NCBI GenBank assembly: GCA_033762115.1
Contig: JANRLX010000027.1
Span: 21,129-85,128, forward strand
Source of the DNA: Verrucomicrobiota bacterium
GTDB lineage: Bacteria > Verrucomicrobiota > Verrucomicrobiia > Limisphaerales > SXQI01
Length of the DNA stretch: 64,000 bases
Direction of reading: 5' to 3'
Position numbers and translations under genes: made by a program. Of this stretch, positions 50,923 to 64,000 are shown piece by piece (within the stretch, counting starts at the first letter, position 1; each line of letters opens with the position of its first letter). The notes below the pieces were generated by a model. That model ran no database searches, was not told the DNA's origin, and saw only the letters and a list, made by a program, of their open reading frames with translations.

Positions 50923-52518
50923 ATGAAACACTTCCACTTGGTTACACGTCGTCAGTTTCTGGATCGAGCCATGAAAACCGGCGCCGCTGCGGCGCTGGCC
51001 AGCCTCACCAACATCCCCCTGGTCATGAAACAGGCGCTCGCGGCTGAGAGCAGCCTCGGCACCAACGGCAAAAAGCTGCTCTTTATTTTCCTGCGCGGGG
51101 CCAATGACGGGCTGAATTCTGTAATCCCAATTGGCGATGATGGCTACAGCCTGGAGCATCGCCCGGACATCCTGATCCCTCGCGATCCCGGAACTGATTA
51201 TACCATCCTGGGTGGCTGCGATTATCCTTCTGTTGCAACACCTGATGCTCCAACGTTCGGTTACGCTTCCGCCATCCGCCTCGGCAATGGATTTTCTGCT
51301 CTCCATCCCTCCTTGAAATTTCTGGCCCCTGTTTACAACGCAGGCGATCTGGCCATGATCCATCGTGTCGGCTATCCCAAACAAAGCCGTTCCCATTTCG
51401 ATTCACAGGTTTATTGGGAAACCGGGCATCCCAACAATCCATCCAAGGAAGGGATTTTTTACCGCACCATCATGGAATCCGGCCTCGCCCACACGCTTCC
51501 GCTCACAGGCGTTTCCATCCAATCCTCCCTGCCAGTGATTTTGCGCGGATCGGACGCGGCCATGACCAACCTGAAAGATCCCAATCGATACGATCTGCTC
51601 GGCATTCCCAACAATACCAACGGCAACAGCAAAGCGGATTTTCATCTGCGCAATGCCAATGAATTTCCTTTCCCTTCAAGACTCAATCGGGACCTCCTTA
51701 AGCTGCAATACAATAATCTCTCCCAGACTCTCTCGATTTTCGATGCGATGGATTTCTCTGAAACGGGCAACATTTTCACCGACGATGTGAACACTGATGG
51801 AGATACTGTTCCCTACCATCTTTTTCCAACGACCAACAGCAAGAACGGCGGATACCAGGCACACAACAACGATCCATTGAAATACGTCGTGAATCCCAAC
51901 TCCTACAGCTTTTTCCGCGACCTCAAAGCCGCTGCAATGGTTCTCAACAACACGGATGCCATGATTGCCGGCACCCGTCTCGATGGGTTCGACACCCACA
52001 GCAACCAGGGCGGTGTCACAGGTGCCCACGCCAACTTGCAACGTTCCATCGGCTGGGCCATCTACGCCCTCAGAAAATATTTCACCAAATACGCGCAGCG
52101 TGTGAACTGGAACAACCTGGTGGTGGTCACTCTCTCCGAATTCGGACGCACCACCATTCAGAATTCTGATGCAGGAACAGATCACGCGGAAGCCAATGTC
52201 ATGTTTGTCGCTGGCGGGGGAGTCAAAGGCTACAACAAGGGCAATCCATCCGGCGTTTTTGCCGGTCACCCGAACGATTCCATCCCCTGGGTTACCGGAA
52301 GAACCGGTTCCATGTTCGGCGTCAGCACTCGTTATCTAAAACGTTCTGTGGATTACCGCTCCGTTCTCGGAAAATTGATTCGCGATCATTTGGGCGCTTC
52401 GCAAGAGCAGTTGAACCGGATCATCCCCGGCTATGCCACCGCCAGCAAACGATTGTTAAGCGGTGGTGTTTCAGGCGAAGACGGCACCCAGATCACGGGC
52501 GAACTGCCAATCGTCTAA
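50923..52518 (+). CDS. Tat-signal DUF1501 protein
   Basis: TRRQFLDRAMKTGAAAALA Tat signal. Core motifs are LLFIFLRGANDGLN and SEFGRT...GTDHAEANVMFVAGGGVKG. An AGGAG SD lies inside the end of the DUF1800 gene, 1 nt from its stop. Confidence 0.85.
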   Translation: MKHFHLVTRRQFLDRAMKTGAAAALASLTNIPLVMKQALAAESSLGTNGKKLLFIFLRGANDGLNSVIPIGDDGYSLEHRPDILIPRDPGTDYTILGGCDYPSVATPDAPTFGYASAIRLGNGFSALHPSLKFLAPVYNAGDLAMIHRVGYPKQSRSHFDSQVYWETGHPNNPSKEGIFYRTIMESGLAHTLPLTGVSIQSSLPVILRGSDAAMTNLKDPNRYDLLGIPNNTNGNSKADFHLRNANEFPFPSRLNRDLLKLQYNNLSQTLSIFDAMDFSETGNIFTDDVNTDGDTVPYHLFPTTNSKNGGYQAHNNDPLKYVVNPNSYSFFRDLKAAAMVLNNTDAMIAGTRLDGFDTHSNQGGVTGAHANLQRSIGWAIYALRKYFTKYAQRVNWNNLVVVTLSEFGRTTIQNSDAGTDHAEANVMFVAGGGVKGYNKGNPSGVFAGHPNDSIPWVTGRTGSMFGVSTRYLKRSVDYRSVLGKLIRDHLGASQEQLNRIIPGYATASKRLLSGGVSGEDGTQITGELPIV

Positions 52519-52534
52519 CCAATTGCCGATGCCA

Positions 52535-55500
52535 TTATTTCGCTTCGCTTTTCAACGAGGAGAGATAAGCGATCAGGTCAGCAAATTCTTCGATGGAAAG
52601 CGCGGCATGCAATCCCTCCGGCATCAGCGAGAAATTGCTGTTCCTGCGCGCCTTGATTGCTGACCTCTGCAATTTGTGTTCACGGCCTGAGCTGTCCCGC
52701 AATGTGACCAGTCCATTGTTCTCCCCTTTGATCACCCCACTGAACTCCTCGTCATCGTTCATTTCCAATGTGATCTGCTGGTAACCTTCACGGACAGTTT
52801 TGCTCGGATAGATAATGGCTTCCGCCAATGCGCGTCGATCAAACTGCGTGCCCGCTCCGCTCAAGTCCGGGCCCACATCACTTCCTTCCCCTCCAACTCG
52901 ATGGCACGCAGCGCAATTGACTCCATTCGCCTCAAAGAACAACGATTTTCCCCGCACGACATCTCCAGGAACTTTAATTGCGGCCTCGAGATACTCCTCC
53001 GCGCTCGGTTGCCTGATCTCCCGGGTGAAAAGCGGACCGGCTTCCGCTGTTTTGTTCCCCGCGTAAATATGGCGTAATTCAGTGATTGCCTGTGGCGAAA
53101 GCGTGGCAGCTCTCGCTTCAGCCGCCTTCAACATCTTCCCGCTGATATTTCGGATTGCCAGGTGCGCGGCATTCCGCTCGGCAGGATTTTTCGAAGAAAT
53201 ACCATCCAGGAGCGCATCACTGGCGCGGGCATCCGGCGTCCTGGCCAGCCCGGCAAAAGCGTCGTTGCGTAACGCTCCATCCGAATAAGCTTTCAATAAG
53301 GCGGGAATGGCCTTGGGGCTTTTCAGGTCACTCAAGCTTTTCACCGCTGCGCGTCTTACTTCCAATTCCCCGTCCTCCAGGGCTTTCTCCAGCAGTGGCA
53401 CGCTGACATCTCCTTGAAGGCGCGAAAGCGTGCTGAGCGCTGCGGCACGAACGGAGCCCTTTGGATGATTTGCCAGCGGTTCAATCGCAGTCGATCCCTC
53501 CTTCACTGAAAGTTTTCCCACTCCCTTGATTGCTGCCACCAGAGATTCGGCATTTTTTTCAGGTCCGGTTAAAAATGCGGATAACGCCTGCGCCGCCTGC
53601 TCACCCCCAATATCTGCGGCTGCCTCGATCGCAGCCATGGTCAATTCAGCATTCGAGGGACGCGATAATTCCATCGTCACCATTCCGAGCGCTTCGCTGT
53701 CCTTCATTGTCCCCAGCGCTCTCAGGATGGTGGCCTTGACTTGTGGGTTGCTTTCCTTCGGATAAATCTCACGCAGGGCAGGGGAGTACCCTCTATCCCC
53801 CGCAACAGCCAATCCTCGAATGCACGCCAGTCGCAACTCCGAATTGGTTTCCGTGAGCCCCGCTTGCAATGTGGCCAGGACCAGCTCTGTGCCGCTCCAT
53901 TTCACAGTCTTTGCAGGTGCCGGTTGCAACGCCGGATGATAAGCCCACCATTCACCTTTCCATTCCGGTTTCTGATGATGTAACGTGGCGATCAACTCCA
54001 CCGCTCGTTGCCGCATTGCCAGGTTTTTTCCTTTGTCCCGGAATACTTTCACCAGGGCTGCCAGTAAATCGCCATCATACGTCTCCCGCACCGCAAAACT
54101 CGTTCCTTCAATGATCCGATCATTGTTGCTTTCCCATCCCTGCAAAATCATTTCCCATGCGGATGGCGACTTTCTGCCTATGCGATTCAACGCAGTAAAC
54201 GCAGCATATCGCGCAAATAAATCCTCCTCCTTCAACGCCGCCACAAGCTCCGGAACTGCCTCAGCTCCACCGATTCTTCCCAATGCGGTTGCTGCCTGGA
54301 ACCGCACCGATGCCTCCTCATCCTTTAGCCGTAACTCCAGCGCACCAACAGCCTCGGTAACCTGTTTCAATCCCAATTGGCGGATCGCCTGCCGCCGAAT
54401 CATCGAATCGCTCTCACGGGTGACTGCAATCATCACAGGCTTGACAGAATCATCCCCCATTTCATGCAACGCCCAGATCGCATGGCTTCTCGCCAATGCA
54501 GGGGCTGACGCATTTTGAACAACTCCAATCAGCAGTTTCCTGGTTTCCATGCCTTTCGATCTGGATAACTCCCGTTGCGCAGCTAATCGAACATTTCGTG
54601 AGGGATGAAACAACCCCTTCACAAAATCTTCCGCCTTCCCTTCAGGCGCTTTCCCCATTGCAGCTGGCAAATACCATTCTGGCTTTGGGCTGCTGTGGTC
54701 TTTTCCTTTCCAGGTCAGCTTTAATAATCGCCCCACGCTGACCTTTGCCTTTTCATCCCGATGCTGCCAGTCACAAATGTAAATGCTTTTTCCATCTGCG
54801 CTCTGGGTGATACCCACGGGCCGAAAATCTCCCGGCGGATTCGGAAACAAATCTTCCTTCAACACCGCCTGATAACTGCCTCCTTCCCGTTTGACCTGCA
54901 CCCGCATCACTTGCCGCTTGCCAAAATCAGACAAAAAAACATTCCCTTCATACTCCGGCGGCAACGCATCCTCATTGTTTGCCAAAGCTCCGCAAGCCGC
55001 CCCCGCTCCATAATCCTCCATCATCCACAAGGTGTACGGACGGCGCGGAATAAAATCGTGCGGATAACCGTAAAATCCCGCTTCCACCATGTGAGTAAAA
55101 CGTCCCATCCATTCATGCTCATCGGTGTTGTCATAAGTGAATTGCTCATCCTCCGCGTTCAGCGCCACATCAAGGATATTTCTCACCCCATGCGACATGA
55201 CTTCAAGTCGGGTTCCATCCGGTCGAATCCGGAAGATGCCGCCCGTCGAAAGTGTCGCCCTTGAGCCATCCCTTCCCTCTGCCCCGTACAACCCCTTGTC
55301 CCCGCATGCCGCATAAAAAAAGCCATCCATCCCCAGCTTGAAATTCGCAGGAATATGGTCGTTCCAGTTCAACGCGGAAGGTTCAGGCAATGTTTGCTCG
55401 ATCAGTTCACGACGGTTTCGGCCAATTCCATTGTCATCCTCAAAAACGCTGAACTTCGGGTTGTGCAGCACGTACAATTTTCCTTCCAGGTATTGCAACC

Positions 55501-55792
55501 CAAAGACCGCATAAAGCTTTTCTGCAAACACCGTTATCCTGCCATCCGGGTGGAGGCACAGGATTCTCCCTTCAGCCGCGCTTGCTTCAGGAAGGCTGAT
55601 ATCCATCGGATCTTCCGCCACGAAAACCCGTCCATCCGGTGCGCACGCCACCACCGACGGATGACGAAGTGTTGGCGCTTCGGCAACCACTTCAACCTGC
55701 CATCCTGCAACCGGTTCCGGGAGAGCGGCAGCTTCTCCCTTGCATGCGATGATCAGGGCTGAAAACAGGAACTGAACAACTGAAAATTTCAT
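52535..55792 (-). CDS. PVC-type dehydrogenase-domain + HEAT + C-terminal c-type heme-binding protein (paralogue 3)
   Basis: 1085 aa with a signal peptide. CAACH is encoded at 52901-52915 on the minus strand, followed by GPDLSG and a SLMPEG tail. Confidence 0.85.
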   Translation of the reverse strand: MKFSVVQFLFSALIIACKGEAAALPEPVAGWQVEVVAEAPTLRHPSVVACAPDGRVFVAEDPMDISLPEASAAEGRILCLHPDGRITVFAEKLYAVFGLQYLEGKLYVLHNPKFSVFEDDNGIGRNRRELIEQTLPEPSALNWNDHIPANFKLGMDGFFYAACGDKGLYGAEGRDGSRATLSTGGIFRIRPDGTRLEVMSHGVRNILDVALNAEDEQFTYDNTDEHEWMGRFTHMVEAGFYGYPHDFIPRRPYTLWMMEDYGAGAACGALANNEDALPPEYEGNVFLSDFGKRQVMRVQVKREGGSYQAVLKEDLFPNPPGDFRPVGITQSADGKSIYICDWQHRDEKAKVSVGRLLKLTWKGKDHSSPKPEWYLPAAMGKAPEGKAEDFVKGLFHPSRNVRLAAQRELSRSKGMETRKLLIGVVQNASAPALARSHAIWALHEMGDDSVKPVMIAVTRESDSMIRRQAIRQLGLKQVTEAVGALELRLKDEEASVRFQAATALGRIGGAEAVPELVAALKEEDLFARYAAFTALNRIGRKSPSAWEMILQGWESNNDRIIEGTSFAVRETYDGDLLAALVKVFRDKGKNLAMRQRAVELIATLHHQKPEWKGEWWAYHPALQPAPAKTVKWSGTELVLATLQAGLTETNSELRLACIRGLAVAGDRGYSPALREIYPKESNPQVKATILRALGTMKDSEALGMVTMELSRPSNAELTMAAIEAAADIGGEQAAQALSAFLTGPEKNAESLVAAIKGVGKLSVKEGSTAIEPLANHPKGSVRAAALSTLSRLQGDVSVPLLEKALEDGELEVRRAAVKSLSDLKSPKAIPALLKAYSDGALRNDAFAGLARTPDARASDALLDGISSKNPAERNAAHLAIRNISGKMLKAAEARAATLSPQAITELRHIYAGNKTAEAGPLFTREIRQPSAEEYLEAAIKVPGDVVRGKSLFFEANGVNCAACHRVGGEGSDVGPDLSGAGTQFDRRALAEAIIYPSKTVREGYQQITLEMNDDEEFSGVIKGENNGLVTLRDSSGREHKLQRSAIKARRNSNFSLMPEGLHAALSIEEFADLIAYLSSLKSEAK

Positions 55793-55796
55793 GGCC

Positions 55797-57218
55797 TCAG
55801 GGCAACTCTTTGATTCGCAGGTTTCGATGCCGGACTATTTTATCATCATTATAATTTTGCAGCCCAATATAACCGCTTGCTGATCTGCCCGAAACATCTG
55901 TCCATGTATTCACCACCACATCATTGATCCGCACGCTGTAATCATGACCTTTGCACACAATTTCGTAACTGTTCCATTCCCCAGTCGGTTTTACCGTCAT
56001 CTTCGATGGCGCACGGAAAGGGTAGATCGCTCCGGTCTTCCACTCCGGCTTTTCAGCTTTCGAATCGCCGATTTCCATTTCATGCCCTTTTTTCACCGCC
56101 ACCCAGGGGTCATTGCCCGGATCGGGAAAACGCAAAAACACCCCTGAGTCCGCTATCTCCTGCTCCTGCAGGAACTCCCCGCGAATAACAAAATTCGTAA
56201 ATTGCTTTCCAGAGTACCACCACAATCCCATGCCTCCTTCGCCACTGGCAACCCCGTTGGAAACTTTGAATTTTCCCGGGCCTGACTGTTTCCATTCCTT
56301 CAAAGCGTCCCCCTCCAGCAACGGTTTGAACCCCTCCTCACTTCCCACAGGCGACACCACATAATCCAGCAACTCTGCCGGTATGGAAAACAGCGGGCGT
56401 ACCTCCGCTTTTCGATAAAACAACTCCGCAGCTTCCGATTGCAGTTGAATCTTGCCATGGGTCAATGCCTTCCAGACACCTCCCTCCTGGTAACGGGGAT
56501 TGAACGCAACCAGGTTGACATGCCCGTTCAGGATATGAATGCAGTTGCCTCCCCAGAACACCACTTCCACCGTGTTCCAGTTGCCGAAAACCTCTTCCAC
56601 ATCAAATGGTGGCGTGATTCCGTTCGCCCCCGTCGCGGTAATTCGGGGAGCCCCTTTTTTCCAGACAATATTCTTCTCTCCTGCGCCTTCCTTCTTGTAC
56701 GGGATGTAAAGTTCGTTCTCGGCTGTAATCCACTCCCCCTCGCAATCAATCCTTGCTCCATTCACGCTCCACCATTGCCCCACCCCTTTTTCCATGATGT
56801 TGTTCTCCACCGAAGTCATCCAGCCAGTCCCTGGATTCGGGGCCCCAATCGCACAGTAGAGTATCCCTGAGTCCCGTCCCACATTCCCTCGCGCCGGCCA
56901 TCGTTTCATTCCCCATTTGAACTGCACCCGAAAATGGAAATTCGTGAAAACCTCATGCGTTGTGATCGCGCCGTAAATCTCTCCGGAGACATGAATCAGG
57001 TTTTCCCCATTCTCGTTGGTAATGCTGAAGACTCCTTTCGGATCAACATTCGGGACAAGTGGTGTCGAACTTCCCGGCGTCGCGAGGAACTTGTCCCAAT
57101 TCGATAAATCCTTCCCGTTGAAGAGCGCCTTCCATCCCGGTTCAGGCGTTGCGATCTCCGGTTCCGCCGCAAAAAGCGTGCTGACCAGCATGGCCAAAAT
57201 TAAAACTCTTGGTTTCAT
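55797..57218 (-). CDS. secreted protein with two tandem DUF1080 (3-keto-disaccharide-hydrolase-like, concanavalin-type) domains
   Basis: Signal peptide present. Domain 1 runs GWKALFNGKDLSNW ... IQLQSEAAELFYRKAEV. Domain 2 runs GFKPLLEGDALKEWKQ ... GYIGLQNYNDDKIVRHRNLRIKEL. Confidence 0.8.
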   Translation of the reverse strand: MKPRVLILAMLVSTLFAAEPEIATPEPGWKALFNGKDLSNWDKFLATPGSSTPLVPNVDPKGVFSITNENGENLIHVSGEIYGAITTHEVFTNFHFRVQFKWGMKRWPARGNVGRDSGILYCAIGAPNPGTGWMTSVENNIMEKGVGQWWSVNGARIDCEGEWITAENELYIPYKKEGAGEKNIVWKKGAPRITATGANGITPPFDVEEVFGNWNTVEVVFWGGNCIHILNGHVNLVAFNPRYQEGGVWKALTHGKIQLQSEAAELFYRKAEVRPLFSIPAELLDYVVSPVGSEEGFKPLLEGDALKEWKQSGPGKFKVSNGVASGEGGMGLWWYSGKQFTNFVIRGEFLQEQEIADSGVFLRFPDPGNDPWVAVKKGHEMEIGDSKAEKPEWKTGAIYPFRAPSKMTVKPTGEWNSYEIVCKGHDYSVRINDVVVNTWTDVSGRSASGYIGLQNYNDDKIVRHRNLRIKELP

Positions 57219-57222
57219 AAAA

Positions 57223-57996
57223 TTATCCTGCCTGCTGCCTTCTTTTGTTTACCGGTTTTCCTTCCAATTCCTTCACTCGCGTCACCAGCTTGTCCAGCAC
57301 CGCCAGTTGGCAGATTCGCGGCGCGATTGCAAAGCTACCCGCCGGACGCTCCACCGTTTGCGTGGGCAGCAGGATATCCACTGCCCGCCCCAGTTCGCTC
57401 CCGGGTTCGTTGGTCAATCCAATCGTTTTCACACCCGCCCGTTTCGCTTCCATGACAGCTTGCAACGTAAATTGTGTTTCTCCTGAGTGGGAAATCGCCA
57501 GCAACACCAGCCCGTTCACAGGAGGAGTGAATGCAAACCCTGCCATTTGCGCGTCCGCGATCGGAAGCGCCTGTTTTCGCATCGTGAAAAGAATATCCGT
57601 CAGCACCAGCGCAATTCCGTGTGATGCTCCCACTCCCACCAGGGCCACTCGCGAAGCATTTTTCAATGCCTCCGCTGCCTCCTCCATACCCGCTGCTGCG
57701 GCTGCAAGGCTTGCGGTCATGTCGCTTCCATAATGCCCCTCCCCATTAGCAACCTGCTTGAACTCGCCGCCGGTCAACTCCCGCAGCACATGATACTTCA
57801 AGTCCTGAAATCCATCGAACCCCGCTGCGCGACACGCCCGAACCACTGTCGCGTCACTCGTTTGGCATCCTTGTGCCACTTCTCGCAGGCTCTTTTCCGC
57901 CACCACTCCCATGTCCCGCAGCAATCGTCGCGTCACTTCAGCCTCGCTTGGGCGCATCTCCGCAAGACGTGACTGCAATGTTTGGCTGACGGACAT
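57223..57996 (-). CDS. MurR/RpiR-family transcriptional regulator (HTH + SIS sugar-phosphate-binding domain)
   Basis: The N-terminal HTH_6-like region is SLREVAQGCQTSDATVVRACRAAGFDGFQDLK. The SIS domain is RVALVGVGASHGIA...LLAISHSGET. Confidence 0.8.
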   Translation of the reverse strand: MSVSQTLQSRLAEMRPSEAEVTRRLLRDMGVVAEKSLREVAQGCQTSDATVVRACRAAGFDGFQDLKYHVLRELTGGEFKQVANGEGHYGSDMTASLAAAAAGMEEAAEALKNASRVALVGVGASHGIALVLTDILFTMRKQALPIADAQMAGFAFTPPVNGLVLLAISHSGETQFTLQAVMEAKRAGVKTIGLTNEPGSELGRAVDILLPTQTVERPAGSFAIAPRICQLAVLDKLVTRVKELEGKPVNKRRQQAG

Positions 57997-58127
57997 GCGA
58001 CAAAACTATATAAATATGTTGCAGGCACAACAAAAAATTGATTAAGTCGCTTTCCAATGACGCGCGCTTCCATTTTTCAATCCGGCAGGTTCGTTTCTGC
58101 CCTTCACGTCATTTCCCAATCACCACA

Positions 58128-59246
58128 ATGAGATCGATGCCACCTGCCGTTCCCATCCGCATCGGTGTGATTGGCTGCGGCAATGTCCTCAGCGCCTATC
58201 GCGTCACGATTGATAAGCTCCGTGCACGCGGCGAAGTCCAGGTTGTCCTGGCCTGTGGACGGGAATCGCAACGCGCCTCAGCCTGTGCAGCTCTTGGTAA
58301 CACCGAGTTCACCACCGATGCCACCCAGGTCATCACCTCCTCACAAGTTGATCTTGTGATCATCCTGACCTCCATGTCCGAACACGCGCGACTGGCCCGC
58401 GCAGCCTTGGAAGCAGGCAAGCATGTGCTGCTCGAAAAACCGCTCGCCACCTCCCTTGCCGAGGCCCGGGCCCTCGTTGACATGGCGCAACGCACTCCCG
58501 GTTACCTGGCCTGCGCTCCTTTCACCATTCTCAGTCCCACCTTCAAAACCATCGCCGCACGCATTCGCAACGGGGACATTGGAAAACCCTGCTCCGCTCG
58601 TGCTCGTTATGGATGGGCCGGTCCCGATTGGAATGAATGGTTTTACAAACCCGGTGGCGGTTGCCTCTTTGATCTCGCGGTCTATTGCCTCACCAGCCTC
58701 ACCGGCCTGCTCGGCCCGGCAAAAAGGGTCATGGCCATGACCGGCATTGCCCAACCTGAAAGAATAATCAATGGCCGCCCTGTTTCCGTTACCGCCGAAG
58801 ACAATGCACAAGTCCTGCTTGATTTCGGCCAGGGAACTTTCGCTGTTGTCACCAGCGGCTTCAACATCCAGCAATATCGTAATCCCGCTCTTGAAGTTTA
58901 CGGCACCACCGGAACCATCCAGATGCTTGGTGACGATTGGGACCCCGATGGCTACGAGCTTTGGCAAAACTCCTTCGGCGCTTGGCAGCTTTACAAGGAA
59001 ACCGCTCCCGATTGGCCCTGGACCGATGGTTTGAACCACCTTGTCGATTGCATTCGCCAACGATCCAAACTCCTCGTCACTCCGGAGCACGCCTTGCATG
59101 TCCTTGAAATCATGCTCCAGGCCCAGCAATCCGGACTGCATGGCAACGCCTGCCAGTTGGAATCCACCTTTGTTCCACCCACCTTTGAAACATCCCCGAC
59201 CGGGGAAGCTGCCCATCGCGTCCACGATCGCACAAGAGAACACTGA
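58128..59246 (+). CDS. Gfo/Idh/MocA family oxidoreductase (cytoplasmic)
   Basis: The start was moved to ATG 58128 (MRSMPPAVPIRIGVIGCGN). The EKP motif is VLLEKPLA. Confidence 0.8.
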   Translation: MRSMPPAVPIRIGVIGCGNVLSAYRVTIDKLRARGEVQVVLACGRESQRASACAALGNTEFTTDATQVITSSQVDLVIILTSMSEHARLARAALEAGKHVLLEKPLATSLAEARALVDMAQRTPGYLACAPFTILSPTFKTIAARIRNGDIGKPCSARARYGWAGPDWNEWFYKPGGGCLFDLAVYCLTSLTGLLGPAKRVMAMTGIAQPERIINGRPVSVTAEDNAQVLLDFGQGTFAVVTSGFNIQQYRNPALEVYGTTGTIQMLGDDWDPDGYELWQNSFGAWQLYKETAPDWPWTDGLNHLVDCIRQRSKLLVTPEHALHVLEIMLQAQQSGLHGNACQLESTFVPPTFETSPTGEAAHRVHDRTREH

Positions 59247-60121
59247 TGCTCCCTCGCTGGCTCATCTTCACCATCCTTGCGCTCCTCAGTTGGGGATTAT
59301 GGGCGATTGTTTCTAAACTCATTGGCGAATCCGTCACCGCTGCCCAAAGCCAGGCTCTCTCCACCATCGGGTTGGTTCCTGTCATGCTGCTGCTCGCCTT
59401 TTCAAAAAAAACTTCCTCTCCCGGCAGCAAGGGCAGGGGATCACTCCTGGCTTTTATCGCTGGTTGCCTGACCTGTGCCGGGAACGTTGCCTACTACCAT
59501 GCCCTTAACCTGGGCGGCAAGGCGGCCACTGTTGTCCCACTCACCGCCCTCTATCCACTCGTCACCATTTTGCTCGCGCTGCTGTTCCTGCGCGAACGGC
59601 TCAATAATATCCAGATCGCCGGGATGGGCCTTTCATTCGTCGCCATTTATCTCTTCAACATCACTTCCATGGAAGGGATGGCCTCCAAATGGCTGCTTTA
59701 TGCCCTGGTTCCGATTCTCCTTTGGGGAATCTCCGGCCTGGTTCAGAAAATCTCCACCAACCATATCCCCGGCGAACTTTCTGCTCTTTGGTTTCTTTCC
59801 GCCTTTGTCCCTGCTGGAATTCTCATTCTCATTTTCGAACCGCTCTCTACTTCCCTTTCCCTCCGGACCTGGACCCTTGTTGCCGCCCTCGGCCTTTTTT
59901 TAAGTCTTGGCAATTTTTCAATCCTGCTCGCTTTTGCGAGCACGGGAAAAGCTTCCATTATCGCTCCTTTGGCCGGCCTTTACCCGCTTGTCAGCGTTCC
60001 CATCGCCATTTTCTTCCTCGGTGAAAAAATCGGTCAAAGGGAACTGGCTGGAATTTTCGTCGCTCTCCTCTCCGTGGTTGCACTCGCATGGGAAAAACCC
60101 GGCGCTGCCTCAAATACTTGA
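59246..60121 (+). CDS. EamA/DMT-superfamily transporter
   Basis: 291 aa with ten hydrophobic spans in two 5-TM halves. The ATG overlaps the upstream TGA by 1 nt. Confidence 0.75.
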   Translation: MLPRWLIFTILALLSWGLWAIVSKLIGESVTAAQSQALSTIGLVPVMLLLAFSKKTSSPGSKGRGSLLAFIAGCLTCAGNVAYYHALNLGGKAATVVPLTALYPLVTILLALLFLRERLNNIQIAGMGLSFVAIYLFNITSMEGMASKWLLYALVPILLWGISGLVQKISTNHIPGELSALWFLSAFVPAGILILIFEPLSTSLSLRTWTLVAALGLFLSLGNFSILLAFASTGKASIIAPLAGLYPLVSVPIAIFFLGEKIGQRELAGIFVALLSVVALAWEKPGAASNT

Positions 60122-60126
60122 TTATT

Positions 60127-61071
60127 ATGAAATCCATCACTGAACTCATGAAAAATAACGTCGTCCTGGGGGATGGCGGTTACCTTATCGAACTCGAACG
60201 CCGCGGTTATGTCGATAGCGGCTCCGGCCGGGAAAAAGTCGGCACCGGTCGCGGCAGCGGCCAGTTCACACCCGAAGTCGCTGTCGAACAGCCCGACGCC
60301 TTGCGCGAGTTGCATCGCGAATTTTTAAATGCCGGTTCCCAGGTCCTTCAGGCCCTCACCTTTTTCGGTACCCGCGAAAAACTGAACCGCGCCGGTTACG
60401 GCGCTCAGACCGAATCCATCAATGCCGCCGCGGTCAAGCTCGCCAGGGAAATCGCCGGTGACAAGGCCCTCGTCGCAGGCAGTGTTTCCCGCACCCAGCT
60501 CACCGAACGCGAAGGAATGGAGTCCCTCGGTAAATCACGCGACCATATTGCCGAGCAGATCCGCCTGCTCAAGGATGCCGGGGTCGATTTCCTCATTCTT
60601 GAAACCTTCTTTCATCTCGCCGAAATGAAAGTGGCCCTTGAATGCGCCTCCGCTGCCGGTCTCCCTGCTGTCGCCACCATGAGCTTCCGCCCGCTCATCA
60701 CCAAATGCACCGATGGGTTCACCCCCGCCGAATGCGCCAGGGCCATGGCCGACCTGGGTGCCATCGCCGTCGGTGCCAATTGCGAACAGGACCCTGCTCG
60801 CATGCTGCCTCTCCTTCGCGAAATGCGTGCCGCCACCAATGTCCCCATCGCTGCCCAACCCGCCGCTTTCCACACCACCGAGGAATGCCACAGCTTCACT
60901 CGCCTTCCCGCATTTCCGGATGATCTTGAAACCATCCAGGTCTCACGCACTGAATTCCTGAACTTCGGAAAAATTGCCCGTCAGGAAGGCATCGGTTTCC
61001 TGGGCGGCTGCTGCGGCTGCAATGCCGCTTACATTCGCTCCCTTGCTTCTGGGATTCAGTCCGCAAAATAA
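60127..61071 (+). CDS. homocysteine S-methyltransferase-family protein, betaine-homocysteine methyltransferase (BHMT)-like
   Basis: The start was moved to ATG 60127. It is collinear with vertebrate BHMT as I recall it: VLGDGGYLIELERRGY, PEVAVEQPDALRELHREFLNAGSQV, VGANC, and the zinc-site motif FLGGCCGC near the C-terminus. Confidence 0.75.
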   Translation: MKSITELMKNNVVLGDGGYLIELERRGYVDSGSGREKVGTGRGSGQFTPEVAVEQPDALRELHREFLNAGSQVLQALTFFGTREKLNRAGYGAQTESINAAAVKLAREIAGDKALVAGSVSRTQLTEREGMESLGKSRDHIAEQIRLLKDAGVDFLILETFFHLAEMKVALECASAAGLPAVATMSFRPLITKCTDGFTPAECARAMADLGAIAVGANCEQDPARMLPLLREMRAATNVPIAAQPAAFHTTEECHSFTRLPAFPDDLETIQVSRTEFLNFGKIARQEGIGFLGGCCGCNAAYIRSLASGIQSAK

Positions 61072-61085
61072 TCCCTTCTACGGAG

Positions 61086-61802
61086 ATGAACATCGTTCTC
61101 CACCCAAACGCTGAACAGGCCAACACCGCCGCCGCAAGGTTGCTGTTGGATTGGCTCCTGCCACCCTCCACCCGCAATGTCATGGTTGCGGCTGGCAACA
61201 CTCCCCTCGAACTCTATCGCAAAGTCGGTGAACAACAACGCCAACTCTCCCACCTGAATATCTTTGCCCTGGACGAGTATGTTGGTGTTCCGCTTGAGGA
61301 ACCTCGGAATTGCGCCAATCTCATTCGCCGTTCTGTCATTGAGTCCTGGCGCATCCCTCCCGCTCAATACCATTCCGTAAGCTCCCTGGAACAGGATGCC
61401 CTGCAAAGCGTTGCTCAACATGAACGCAGGATCGCTGCCTTTGGCGGTCTGGATGTGATTATCCTCGGCCTCGGCCAGAATGGCCACCTCGGTTTCAATG
61501 AACCAGGCAGCGCCAGCGATTCCGTGGGCCGGTTGCTTGATCTCCAACCCATTTCCATCGAAGCCAATCGAAAATGGTTTGGTGGCGATTACGCTCCATC
61601 CAAAGGTGTTACCGTCGGCATGAAAACCATCCTTTCCGCTCGCAGGGTCATGATCCTTGCTTACGGACCGCACAAAACAGCCGCTGTCAAAGCCATGGTT
61701 AATGGTCCCGTCACCGCGGAATGTCCGGCTTCCTTTTTGCAGAATCATCCGCATGTCCGTCTCTTCCTGGATGAAGCTGCGGCAAAGGATCTCGCCCCAT
61801 GA
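61086..61802 (+). CDS. nagB: glucosamine-6-phosphate deaminase / 6-phosphogluconolactonase-family protein (NagB-like)
   Basis: VMVAAGNTPLELY, LDEYVG and ILGLGQNGHLGFNEPGS. 238 aa. Confidence 0.7.
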   Translation: MNIVLHPNAEQANTAAARLLLDWLLPPSTRNVMVAAGNTPLELYRKVGEQQRQLSHLNIFALDEYVGVPLEEPRNCANLIRRSVIESWRIPPAQYHSVSSLEQDALQSVAQHERRIAAFGGLDVIILGLGQNGHLGFNEPGSASDSVGRLLDLQPISIEANRKWFGGDYAPSKGVTVGMKTILSARRVMILAYGPHKTAAVKAMVNGPVTAECPASFLQNHPHVRLFLDEAAAKDLAP

Positions 61803-62722
61803 GCCCTCCTTCTTTTACTGCCCTGGGCATTGATGTCGGCGGGACCAAAATCGCTGCTGGCCTCGTAACCTTCCCTCAATGTCTCGTCGGTCCCCGAAAA
61901 ACGATCCGCACCGCACCCCTTCGCGGCTCACATGCCGTCCTTGACGATGTCGAACATCTTGTGCGGGAACTCACCTTGGAAGCCGCTGACGCAGCCATCT
62001 CGATTGATGCCATCGGCCTGGGAATTTGCGAAATCGTGACCTCATCCGGCGACATCGCCAGTTCCAATTGTATCCATTGGCCTGGCACAATGGGCCGTGA
62101 CCGCCTTGCCTCTTTTGCCCCCGTTATCATTGAGGCCGATGTCCGCGCAGCCGCACGGGCGGAAGCCCTTTTCGGTGCCGGTCAAAACCGTGGTTCTTTT
62201 CTCTACATCTCAATTGGCACCGGCATTTCCTGCTCTCTGGTTATCCAGGGCAAACCGTTCCTCGGCGCTCGTGGCGCCACCGGGACCATGGCCAGCGGAC
62301 CCTTTCCCGGGTACCGGGAAATCGCCTCCAAAAATGTGCTTCCCCCTCTGGAACAGATCGCTTCAGGCGCAGGGCTCGTCGCTCGTTTCAATGCTCTCCA
62401 TGGAAATGCCACCTCCGCTCAAGAGGTCCTTGCCGCTGCCGACCATGGAAACGAACATGCCATCCATATTCTCGATTCTGCTGCCAAGGCCCTGGGCGGA
62501 AGCATCGGTACGCTCGTTAATGTCCTTGATCCCGAAGCCGTCATCCTGGGCGGTGGTTTGGGTTCTCTTCCCGGGCGGTATCACGACCGTCTGGTGGAAT
62601 TCGCCCGCCACCATATCTGGTGGCAAGGGCATCGCGATCTTCCCATCCTCCTCGCCGCCACCGGCCCGGATGCCGGGCTCATCGGTGCAGCCGCTTCTGC
62701 CTGGAAACATTTCTCCCCCTAA
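61799..62722 (+). CDS. ROK-family sugar kinase-like protein (no HTH; canonical Zn motif absent)
   Basis: LGIDVGGTKIAAGLV, ISIGTGIS and VILGGGL. The ATGA overlaps the nagB-like stop. Confidence 0.75.
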   Translation: MSPPSFTALGIDVGGTKIAAGLVTFPQCLVGPRKTIRTAPLRGSHAVLDDVEHLVRELTLEAADAAISIDAIGLGICEIVTSSGDIASSNCIHWPGTMGRDRLASFAPVIIEADVRAAARAEALFGAGQNRGSFLYISIGTGISCSLVIQGKPFLGARGATGTMASGPFPGYREIASKNVLPPLEQIASGAGLVARFNALHGNATSAQEVLAAADHGNEHAIHILDSAAKALGGSIGTLVNVLDPEAVILGGGLGSLPGRYHDRLVEFARHHIWWQGHRDLPILLAATGPDAGLIGAAASAWKHFSP

Positions 62723-62790
62723 CCAGCAGCTTCCCAATCCATCGGTGGTTGCCTCCTCAGGCACGCCCACCTCAACCGACTCAAATTAAA

Positions 62791-62830
62791 ATACTGTTTT
62801 TATTGACAATATACTGTTCAAAATGACAAC
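62791..62830 (+). repeat. two tandem 20-nt direct repeats in an AT-rich island (candidate protein-binding site or promoter)
   Basis: ATACTGTTTTTATTGACAAT / ATACTGTTCAAAATGACAAC. That is ATACTGTT-N5-TGACAA twice, with 15/20 identical and a 20-nt period. A TTGACA hexamer lies at 62803-62808. Confidence 0.8.
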
Positions 62831-63283
62831 TTATTCCCGGAAAAGGACAACGTGAATAGTAAAACCATGAAATAAACAATAATTCTTACCGGCACCGCAG
62901 CCACACACGGCCCTGGAACAAGCACCCATGATTTCACTGATCGACGGGTGCTCGTGCGATGGCCAGCCGAAGGATGCCCTGGCGGTAACCACCATGACCC
63001 TCCTCCTTAAAAAGGCCGATTATGGTCAACGCCATTTCCATGCCTATGAGCAAAGCAGGCAACCCAGCCATGCTGGATGGCTTCCAAGCCATATTATTAT
63101 GAACACCAAAAAATCATTACCTCTCCCCAGCTTGAGTTATCGAAAACGCTTTCAACCCAGATCCATGAGCTGCGGTCAATCCGCTGCGGCAAAGACGAAA
63201 CCCTGTTTCACCAATTCCCACTTATTCCCACTTCCTCCTGCAACCAGTGAAGCAGACCAGCCATGGGTCAGATGACCGAAACC

Positions 63284-64000
63284 CTATTTCTCATCCATTT
63301 TAATCTCTCCAAGCCATTCGGATGGAGGATGTTTCTGGTACTTGATGCAGAAATCGCGATAAAAGATCGATGGACCGTCACTGGCTTTCATTGCCAGGAT
63401 CTCCTCGAATGTCACCTGCGCAGCGGAGAATTCACCATCGCAAAATTTTCGCATCCCTTCCCGGAACTTCTCCCGCCACGGTTTGCTGCTTTCAGCCACA
63501 TCAAGATTCCCAATCAACTCATGAATCTTCACCACCCGGTCCAATCCCTTGAACCGGAAATGCCCCACCGGTCGCGTCACGAAAAGCTTCGGCACATGCT
63601 CCAGCAAATCGTCCGTCAGCAAAATATCGGTTCCCAGGTATTTGTTCAGTCCTTCCAATCTCGCTGCAAGGTTGATGGCCGGTCCCACTGCCGTGTAATC
63701 AAATCGTTCCCTGCTGCCGATATTGCCAACACTTGCCTCCCCGGTATGCATGCCAACTCGCGTTTTTAACCGGAAACTTTCATTCTCCGCCTCAAACTCG
63801 ATTAACCGCTCCCGCAGCAGCAACGCTGCCCGGCAGGCAAGTTCCGCATGGTTCGGTTGCGGCTCAGGCGCGTTCCACACTGCGAATACCGCATCACCAA
63901 TCAATTTGATCACAGTCCCGTTCGTGTCCTTGACGCATGGCAGGACTGCCTCGAAATACTGGTTCAGCAATTGCATCAATTCTCCCAGCCGCGTCCGATC
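63284..64000 (-). CDS. class III adenylate/guanylate cyclase catalytic domain protein; 5' end outside the window
   Basis: IKLIGDAVFAVWNAP...RVGMHTGEASVGNIGSRERFDYTAVGPAINLAARLEG. The frame stays open to position 64000. Confidence 0.85.
   Translation of the reverse strand, partial: DRTRLGELMQLLNQYFEAVLPCVKDTNGTVIKLIGDAVFAVWNAPEPQPNHAELACRAALLLRERLIEFEAENESFRLKTRVGMHTGEASVGNIGSRERFDYTAVGPAINLAARLEGLNKYLGTDILLTDDLLEHVPKLFVTRPVGHFRFKGLDRVVKIHELIGNLDVAESSKPWREKFREGMRKFCDGEFSAAQVTFEEILAMKASDGPSIFYRDFCIKYQKHPPSEWLGEIKMDEK

Follow-up and report, generated by a model that had tools for sequence, protein, structure and literature searches.

Organization of the locus

The subject of this analysis is a divergent eight-gene locus at positions 52535 to 62722 of a 64,000 nt stretch of DNA from a Verrucomicrobiota bacterium (Limisphaerales; SXQI01), taken from assembly GCA_033762115.1, contig JANRLX010000027.1, positions 21,129 to 85,128 of the forward strand. 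The whole stretch is called the window, and positions are given in its numbering. The minus-strand arm begins with the gene for an RpiR/MurR-family regulator (57223-57996; HTH_6 and SIS domains) and continues, after gaps of 4 nt in each case, with the gene for an exported protein that has two copies of PF06439, the 3-keto-disaccharide-hydrolase family (DUF1080x2, 55797-57218), and then with the gene for an exported heme protein of 1085 residues (52535-55792). The latter is of a type found in the Planctomycetes-Verrucomicrobia-Chlamydiae (PVC) group and was assigned from the open reading frame (ORF) list, Pfam, and NCBIfam. The plus-strand arm is separated from rpiR by a 131 nt intergenic region and encodes a cytoplasmic Gfo/Idh/MocA NAD(P) oxidoreductase of type 1 (Gfo, 58128-59246; PF01408 and PF22725), an EamA/DMT transporter (59246-60121; Pfam EamA), a Zn-dependent homocysteine S-methyltransferase (HMT, 60127-61071; PF02574) resembling betaine-homocysteine S-methyltransferase (BHMT), a paralogue of the NagB-type hexosamine-6-phosphate deaminases (61086-61802; PF01182), and a divergent ROK-family kinase (61799-62722; PF00480). 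The Gfo and EamA genes overlap by 1 nt and the NagB-like and ROK genes by 4 nt, with 5 nt between EamA and HMT and 14 nt between HMT and the NagB-like gene.

The ORF listing agreed with the original prediction, which had been made from the sequence alone, on the eight genes, their coordinates, and their gaps, and the domain assignments were all upheld by Pfam and NCBIfam; the "ten-gene neighborhood" of which it also spoke was at odds with its own list of eight genes. Two start codons needed a decision. The longest ORF for Gfo opens at a TTG at 58038, and orthologues align from residue 3-9 of the form starting at the ATG at 58128; for HMT there is also an in-frame ATG at 60088, and homologues of 314 residues favor 60127. 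None of the proteins of the locus reached the cut-off of a curated NCBIfam equivalog model.

Conservation and distribution of the core genes

Relatives of the HMT, 189 in all, were collected from one genome per GTDB species, and the locus counts given below refer to the best 80 of the 189 (75-92% identical). HMT orthologues that were 80-92% identical were found in 7 of 40 relatives examined, with syntenic neighboring genes in all 7. The best 80 loci came from Verrucomicrobiota (Limisphaerales/Pedosphaera-type metagenome-assembled genomes (MAGs) from lakes, soil, groundwater, and sludge) and from Planctomycetota (Pirellulales, Lacipirellulaceae). Five genes recurred in most of them, namely those for HMT (78 loci), the ROK protein (75), EamA (69), the NagB-like protein (65), and Gfo (57), and four were accessory: DUF1080x2 (21), RpiR (20), a XylR-like regulator (12), and the heme protein (7). 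No further recurrent gene was found in the 80 loci, the remaining large clusters being antisense shadow ORFs.

A metagenome scan seeded with an outlier of 71% identity (P0124) identified a third, mostly soil-borne variant with the gene order SIS-EamA-Gfo-ROK-HMT-Gfo in 80 metagenome loci, the SIS gene being included in at least 25 of these (for example, L133:1222-10133). The invariant core of the cluster is EamA, the BHMT-like HMT, the ROK-like kinase, a hexosamine-6-phosphate deaminase, and Gfo/Idh/MocA, which occur together in three lineages. The conservation of the neighborhood, proposed earlier as a check, was thus confirmed by the synteny in 7 of 7 relatives and by the recurrence of the core in 80 species loci and in soil metagenomes. 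The prevalence of the HMT family was patchy. Within the window's order it was present in 39 of 301 genomes and in 28 of 144 genera, and in 27 of 200 when high-quality genomes alone were counted. Of about 398 genomes sampled from other Verrucomicrobiota orders, not one contained it.

In the 80 loci, the EamA gene usually directly precedes that for HMT, and this is the most constant adjacency of the cluster. It favors what is the main rival to a single pathway, in which two modules would share one operon: EamA and HMT would salvage an ordinary methyl donor (S-methylmethionine or a betaine-like compound) to methionine, and Gfo, ROK, and NagB would catabolize a plain hexosamine, with no substrate in common. 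Pairs of a permease and a homocysteine methyltransferase are known, mmuPM of E. coli being one, and the homocysteine and Zn sites of the HMT are intact. However, in the soil variant the HMT gene lies between ROK and the second Gfo, apart from EamA, in one locus (L198) it directly abuts the DUF1080x2 gene, and reshuffling of the gene order has not separated the five functions in the three lineages. Together with the specialized binding sites and the sugar-type regulators described below, these arrangements make two independent modules unlikely in our view.

Fusions of HMT with NagB, HMT with SIS, and EamA with HMT were each seen on a single contig. Frames of 593-771 residues around HMT in four genomes were considered as further fusions and rejected as out-of-frame read-through of GC-rich upstream genes. 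The public records of several MAG contigs with this verrucomicrobial cluster, from lakes and elsewhere, bear the title 'Akkermansia muciniphila' or 'uncultured Bifidobacterium sp.' (L028, L034, L043, L050, L053, L088, and L103); these are probably mislabeled bins.

The BHMT-like methyltransferase

The best PDB match of the HMT was animal BHMT (1umy, 1lt8; 171 bits, about 40% identity), with which it shares the TIM-barrel PF02574 fold. The three Cys residues of the Zn site and the homocysteine-binding Asp and Glu of BHMT (EC 2.1.1.5) are kept in the motifs GDGG, LETF, GANC (the GxNC Zn-ligand motif), and GGCCG, all invariant in 79 orthologues. The donor side differs. The residues aligned with W44, Y77, and Y160 of human BHMT, which we take to be the aromatic residues of the betaine pocket, are F, F, and T, so that this set of aromatic residues was not found. 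A 13-residue insertion rich in Gly, Ser, and Arg, SGSGREKVGTGRGS, lies in the donor-side loop that holds W44 in BHMT; it is invariant in the 79 orthologues and shared by the 71% outlier, and all relatives of 36-48% identity lack it. In an AlphaFold2 model of the HMT (pLDDT 92.8), the insertion was the only low-confidence segment. The protein stops at residue 314, which corresponds to residue 313 of the 406-407 residues of BHMT, and therefore lacks the C-terminal oligomerization region of about 90 residues. Its score against the curated BHMT model was 106.7, relative to a cut-off of 338, and it is encoded in a sugar operon.

The HMT was also the most conserved protein of the cluster. Compared with their counterparts in the window, the proteins of planctomycete-type loci had median identities of 80% for HMT, 49% for EamA, 46% for ROK, 36% for Gfo, and 30% for the NagB-like protein. 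Such slow evolution suggests that the HMT is under unusually tight constraints, which may stem, for example, from oligomerization or contacts with a partner protein. The original prediction had identified the gene correctly as BHMT-like, but had treated it as one item in a list and assigned it no role in its scheme, whereas it appears here as the most conserved and defining member.

This HMT family is nearer to animal BHMT than to the other stand-alone HMTs of related genomes (at most 33%), with a tier of relatives at 44-49% between. Longer relatives in the middle tier carry pterin-binding or unrelated domains and gave no hint as to the methyl donor. The HMT tree was poorly resolved, and the direction of transfer between phyla could not be read from it. 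Because a 'non-tree-of-life' evolution of metazoan BHMT has been reported (PMC4303824), a bacterial connection of the metazoan enzyme may be worth a proper phylogeny.

The deaminase, the kinase, and the oxidoreductase

The NagB-like protein had S. mutans NagB as its best PDB match and kept the LDEY motif, with the catalytic Asp, and the GHxGFNEP motif. It scored below the equivalog cut-offs (188 relative to 326 for NF001684, and 144 relative to 236.9 for TIGR00502). In the Planctomycetota, the same slot is filled by an AgaI-like protein of about 30% identity that comes near the AgaI equivalog (242 relative to 271 bits), and in the soil variant by a double-SIS protein resembling the isomerase domain of GlmS. 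All three families interconvert 2-amino-aldose 6-phosphates and ketose 6-phosphates, and their alternation in one slot is the strongest argument for a hexosamine-6-phosphate intermediate. For this reason, the kinase and deaminase (or isomerase) step that had been predicted is required.

The ROK protein kept the DxGGT motif (GIDVGGTK) and the catalytic Asp (EADVRAAA). In 76 orthologues, the END motif has become EAD, and RG(A/L)TGT(M/F)ASSP, which contains no Cys or His, takes the place of both the ExGH motif and the CxCGxxGC zinc motif. This protein is the lowest-scoring of four ROK proteins encoded in the genome, and the NagB-like gene is one of four PF01182 genes, the other three of which score better against PF01182. 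Since three other genes of each family score better, the copies in the cluster are taken to be specialized paralogues. It was found in the alignments that the catalytic residues of HMT, NagB, and ROK are kept while the specificity residues have changed. Both the pocket of the ROK protein and the donor-side loop of the HMT are specialized and invariant, which argues against two modules without a common substrate.

Gfo consists of an N-terminal Rossmann domain and a C-terminal alpha/beta domain (PF01408, PF22725), and its N terminus showed no signal or Tat motif. The best PDB relatives were oxidoreductases acting at C1, C2, or C3 of sugar rings. In some loci, a DUF6807 protein (L070:8126-9100) or a longer Gfo/Idh/MocA of about 460-505 residues with PF19051 (L069:5657-7174) adjoins the core; these additions look like lineage-specific redox accessories.

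The same set of enzymes could in principle run in the biosynthetic direction, so that a modified amino sugar or thio-compound would be made and exported by EamA, with the HMT methylating a thiol other than homocysteine. Many characterized EamA proteins are exporters, and NagB-type reactions are reversible. However, the Asp and Glu that bind homocysteine in BHMT are invariant in the HMT, no glycosyltransferase or nucleotide-sugar gene recurs in the loci, and the regulators of the RpiR and XylR types, the kinase, and the exported hydrolase-like proteins form a layout of the catabolic type. We therefore regard biosynthesis as highly improbable.

The regulator and its putative operator

The RpiR protein of the window consists of PF01418 (HTH_6, residues 1-74) and PF01380 (SIS, residues 111-238), and scored 86 bits against the MurR/RpiR model PRK11337, relative to a cut-off of 378. 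Orthologues that were 55-82% identical adjoin the cluster in the 20 loci counted above; in the 12 loci with the alternative regulator, this is of the XylR type, with a periplasmic-binding fold joined to AraC, and the other loci have no regulator nearby. Therefore, "RpiR-centered" is not a general description of the cluster.

A palindrome TGTTG-N6-CAACA had been noticed between rpiR and Gfo. It is present, at 58017-58032 (no strand assigned), one base away from the earlier estimate, with the sequence TGTTGCAGGCACAACA and the consensus T-GTTGCA-N2-YR-CAAC-A. It was found that GTTG-N6-CAAC occurs in all 19 of the rpiR-adjacent intergenic regions (the window counted), at 20-21 nt from the rpiR start codon, and that this offset is the same whether the divergent gene is that for Gfo, HMT, or EamA; conservation does not extend to the flanks. 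The full 16 nt pattern occurred at 21 sites in 1.22 Mb of loci compared to about 1.2 expected, and 20 of the 21 were at this position. The search of 57997-58127 that the original prediction had recommended thus gave a clean phylogenetic footprint, on the strength of which the palindrome is interpreted as a putative RpiR operator, placed so that it would control both divergent transcripts. The genome of the window has one second copy of TGTTG-N6-CAACA, on contig 17; it lies inside an ORF and was dismissed as a chance occurrence. In L028 (7944) and L031 (7914), the putative operator is retained upstream of Gfo with no rpiR adjacent, which may mean that the regulator is encoded at another site or that its loss is recent.

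All of the regulators found were of sugar type, RpiR or XylR-like, and an Rfam scan of 52000-64000 gave no match at E ≤ 0.1 and hence no riboswitch. That there are only sugar-type regulators, and no riboswitch for S-adenosylmethionine or S-adenosylhomocysteine was found, is a further point against a separate methionine-salvage module. Scans of the locus for promoters and terminators gave chance-level results only.

The exported arm

Both exported proteins have an N-terminal signal peptide, as judged by eye. The heme protein continues with an N-terminal six-bladed propeller (DUF7133/TIGR02604), HEAT repeats, and a C-terminal CxxCH cytochrome c. Homologues that are 66-75% identical carry PF07995 (glucose/sorbosone dehydrogenase), whereas the window protein itself had no PF07995 match at E ≤ 1e-3. 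The top fold matches of an AlphaFold2 model of residues 1-364 (pLDDT 73) were pyrroloquinoline quinone (PQQ) sugar dehydrogenases (2ism, 3a9g, 3das, 2g8s, and 1cq1; TM 0.5-0.64). The label "dehydrogenase" was inherited from the original prediction and is supported only indirectly, by the PF07995 domain of close homologues and by the PQQ-dehydrogenase-like fold.

Several lines of evidence connect this arm to the cytoplasmic one. DUF1080x2 was found in 21 loci, all of which have the orthologous Gfo (at least 53% identical), and in no locus without that Gfo; 50 loci have neither. In at least 7 loci, the DUF1080x2 gene is on the same strand as Gfo and directly upstream, at 9-150 nt, and at least 10 loci have genes of the exported and plus arms in same-strand arrays. 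The most complete of these, heme protein-DUF1080x2-Gfo-EamA-HMT-ROK-NagB on one strand, was seen in L026/L091 and L101, with gaps of at most 36 nt in L026/L091 (tblastn coordinates). The divergent arm of L133, a locus of the soil variant, encodes instead a GMC flavoprotein with a Gluconate_2-dh3 subunit, an enzyme of the same type as LacABC (see below), and this arm is present in 4 loci. PVC heme/propeller/HEAT proteins of about 1310 residues fused to PF06439 were also found (P0332, P0334-P0336, P0342, P0365, P0369, and P0379), and such fusions are Rosetta-stone evidence that this common PVC gene pair acts together.

The minus arm might, alternatively, be a neighbor of convenience behind rpiR that takes no part in what the plus arm does. 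PVC genomes abound in both families, and the occurrence of DUF1080x2 in 21 and of the heme protein in 7 of the 80 loci makes them lineage-specific add-ons. However, the 4 nt spacing to rpiR, the same-strand arrays, the strict co-occurrence of DUF1080x2 with the orthologous Gfo, and the unrelated type of periplasmic dehydrogenase in the same position in the soil variant are all difficult to reconcile with mere proximity, which we consider decidedly unlikely. Since most core loci have no such arm, the periplasmic dehydrogenase arm is best described as an accessory front end, and the fact that predicted periplasmic sugar dehydrogenases of two unrelated kinds adjoin one and the same cytoplasmic core speaks for a route from the periplasm to the cytoplasm. 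The scheme of this kind proposed earlier is therefore supported as far as the genomic linkage of the two arms is concerned, whereas its co-regulation and periplasmic chemistry continue to be inferred.

The genes flanking the locus are unrelated to it: upstream are DUF1501/DUF1800 genes, and downstream an adenylate cyclase gene in convergent orientation. Between the ROK gene and the cyclase gene is a gene-free gap of 560 nt (62723-63283), where two listed ORFs (115 and 168 residues) had no Pfam match and no Rfam match was obtained at E ≤ 0.1.

A proposed pathway

We give an even chance to the interpretation that the locus as a whole serves the catabolism of a modified amino sugar. The substrate would most likely be a hexosamine bearing a methyl group that can be transferred, or a glycoside from which one is released. 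A methyl-bearing hexosamine is favored because the HMT is the defining member of the cluster, because three deaminase families share one slot, and because the kinase has lost exactly those residues that normally form hydrogen bonds with the sugar hydroxyls. We infer the substrate and the following order of steps. The cytochrome-linked propeller protein would oxidize a glycoside in the periplasm, and the resulting keto-glycoside would be split by DUF1080x2, by analogy with the LacABC and DUF1080 proteins discussed below. The released sugar would be imported through EamA and phosphorylated by the ROK-like kinase that has lost the usual hydroxyl-binding residues. The methyl group of the sugar would then be transferred to homocysteine by the BHMT-like enzyme, yielding methionine, and the phosphate may be held by the Gly/Arg-rich inserted loop of this enzyme. 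Gfo would contribute a redox step, which may be the reduction of a keto group or the transient activation of the methyl-bearing position, and the NagB-type enzyme would convert the hexosamine 6-phosphate to a ketose 6-phosphate and an amine. Finally, a phosphosugar intermediate would bind to the SIS domain of RpiR and lift repression of both arms.

For the central step we suggest, tentatively and with more doubt than confidence, a novel route in which homocysteine would receive, through the BHMT-like Zn enzyme, the methyl group of an amino sugar (probably as its 6-phosphate), the donor being an onium (N- or S-methyl) hexosamine or an O-methyl hexosamine activated by Gfo. Chemically, a quaternary N-methyl hexosamine would be suitable, since its demethylation would give a tertiary amine that could be released by an enamine/iminium-type deaminase. 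Activation of an O-methyl group by oxidation of the adjacent carbon by Gfo would explain the presence of an oxidoreductase in the core and is without precedent.

A number of points weigh against the interpretation as one catabolic locus. To our knowledge, Zn-thiolate chemistry of the BHMT type has been described only for onium compounds, namely betaine, S-methylmethionine, and S-adenosylmethionine, and a search of the literature for natural onium hexosamines identified no abundant one, trimethylglucosamine coming only from TMG-chitotriomycin. This compound was rejected as the substrate because a single Streptomyces inhibitor is an unlikely source for a widespread cluster. The stoichiometric use of homocysteine would limit the flux. 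Most core-bearing loci lack RpiR, DUF1080x2, and the heme protein; the loci are phylogenetically related, so that the counts are not independent; and the heme-protein model was of moderate confidence, with the six-bladed propeller being a generic fold.

Relation to known systems and significance

The regulatory layout resembles that of E. coli MurR-murQP, in which a regulator with HTH_6 and SIS domains is divergent from an operon for a substituted hexosamine, with a palindromic operator in a short intergenic region and a phosphosugar expected as the effector. The window locus differs in having neither an etherase nor a phosphotransferase system, uptake being assigned to a DMT transporter and a ROK-like kinase, and in its core of HMT and Gfo. 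The exported arm is comparable to Caulobacter, in which the periplasmic cytochrome-linked LacABC dehydrogenase works with a DUF1080 3-ketoglycoside hydrolase (PMC9007349), and to BT2157-2160 of Bacteroides: an exported DUF1080 protein is encoded beside a periplasmic cytochrome-linked dehydrogenase, with a cytoplasmic Gfo/Idh/MocA for the keto-sugar. In contrast to these systems, the predicted dehydrogenase of the window is a propeller/HEAT/cytochrome c protein and not a GMC flavoprotein (which the soil variant has), its DUF1080 domain is in tandem, and a kinase, a methyltransferase, and a deaminase follow downstream. By analogy, the locus would work like a regulon of the MurR-murQP type joined to a periplasmic front end of the LacABC/DUF1080 type. 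The logic of a transporter, a kinase, and a 6-phosphate deaminase or deglycase is also that of nagK/nagB or agaI catabolism and of the frl/fra loci for Amadori compounds; these differ from the window locus, which has no NagA deacetylase, has a kinase without the ROK sugar-binding and Zn motifs, and has a methyltransferase and an oxidoreductase in addition.

Literature searches on the gene combination, on BHMT in PVC bacteria, and on the catabolism of methylated amino sugars found nothing relevant. They gave no description of the cluster, in agreement with the original prediction, which had not recognized the gene combination as a described pathway. The cluster is conserved and apparently undescribed, and its BHMT-like step has no described counterpart.

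The locus offers a defined candidate regulon, with a putative repressor, a putative operator, and eight genes, and provides a genomic role for the widespread PVC pair of heme protein and DUF1080. Its HMT is more conserved than any of its neighbors and has a remodeled donor site. If a sugar is indeed the methyl donor, this would be new enzymology, the first thiol-dependent demethylation of a sugar. In lakes, soils, and sludge, the Limisphaerales/Pedosphaera-type Verrucomicrobiota and the Pirellulales abound as degraders of glycans. If the interpretation is true, there would be a new link between carbohydrate turnover and one-carbon/methionine metabolism, by which the breakdown of glycans would directly serve the supply of methionine in these abundant freshwater and soil PVC bacteria.

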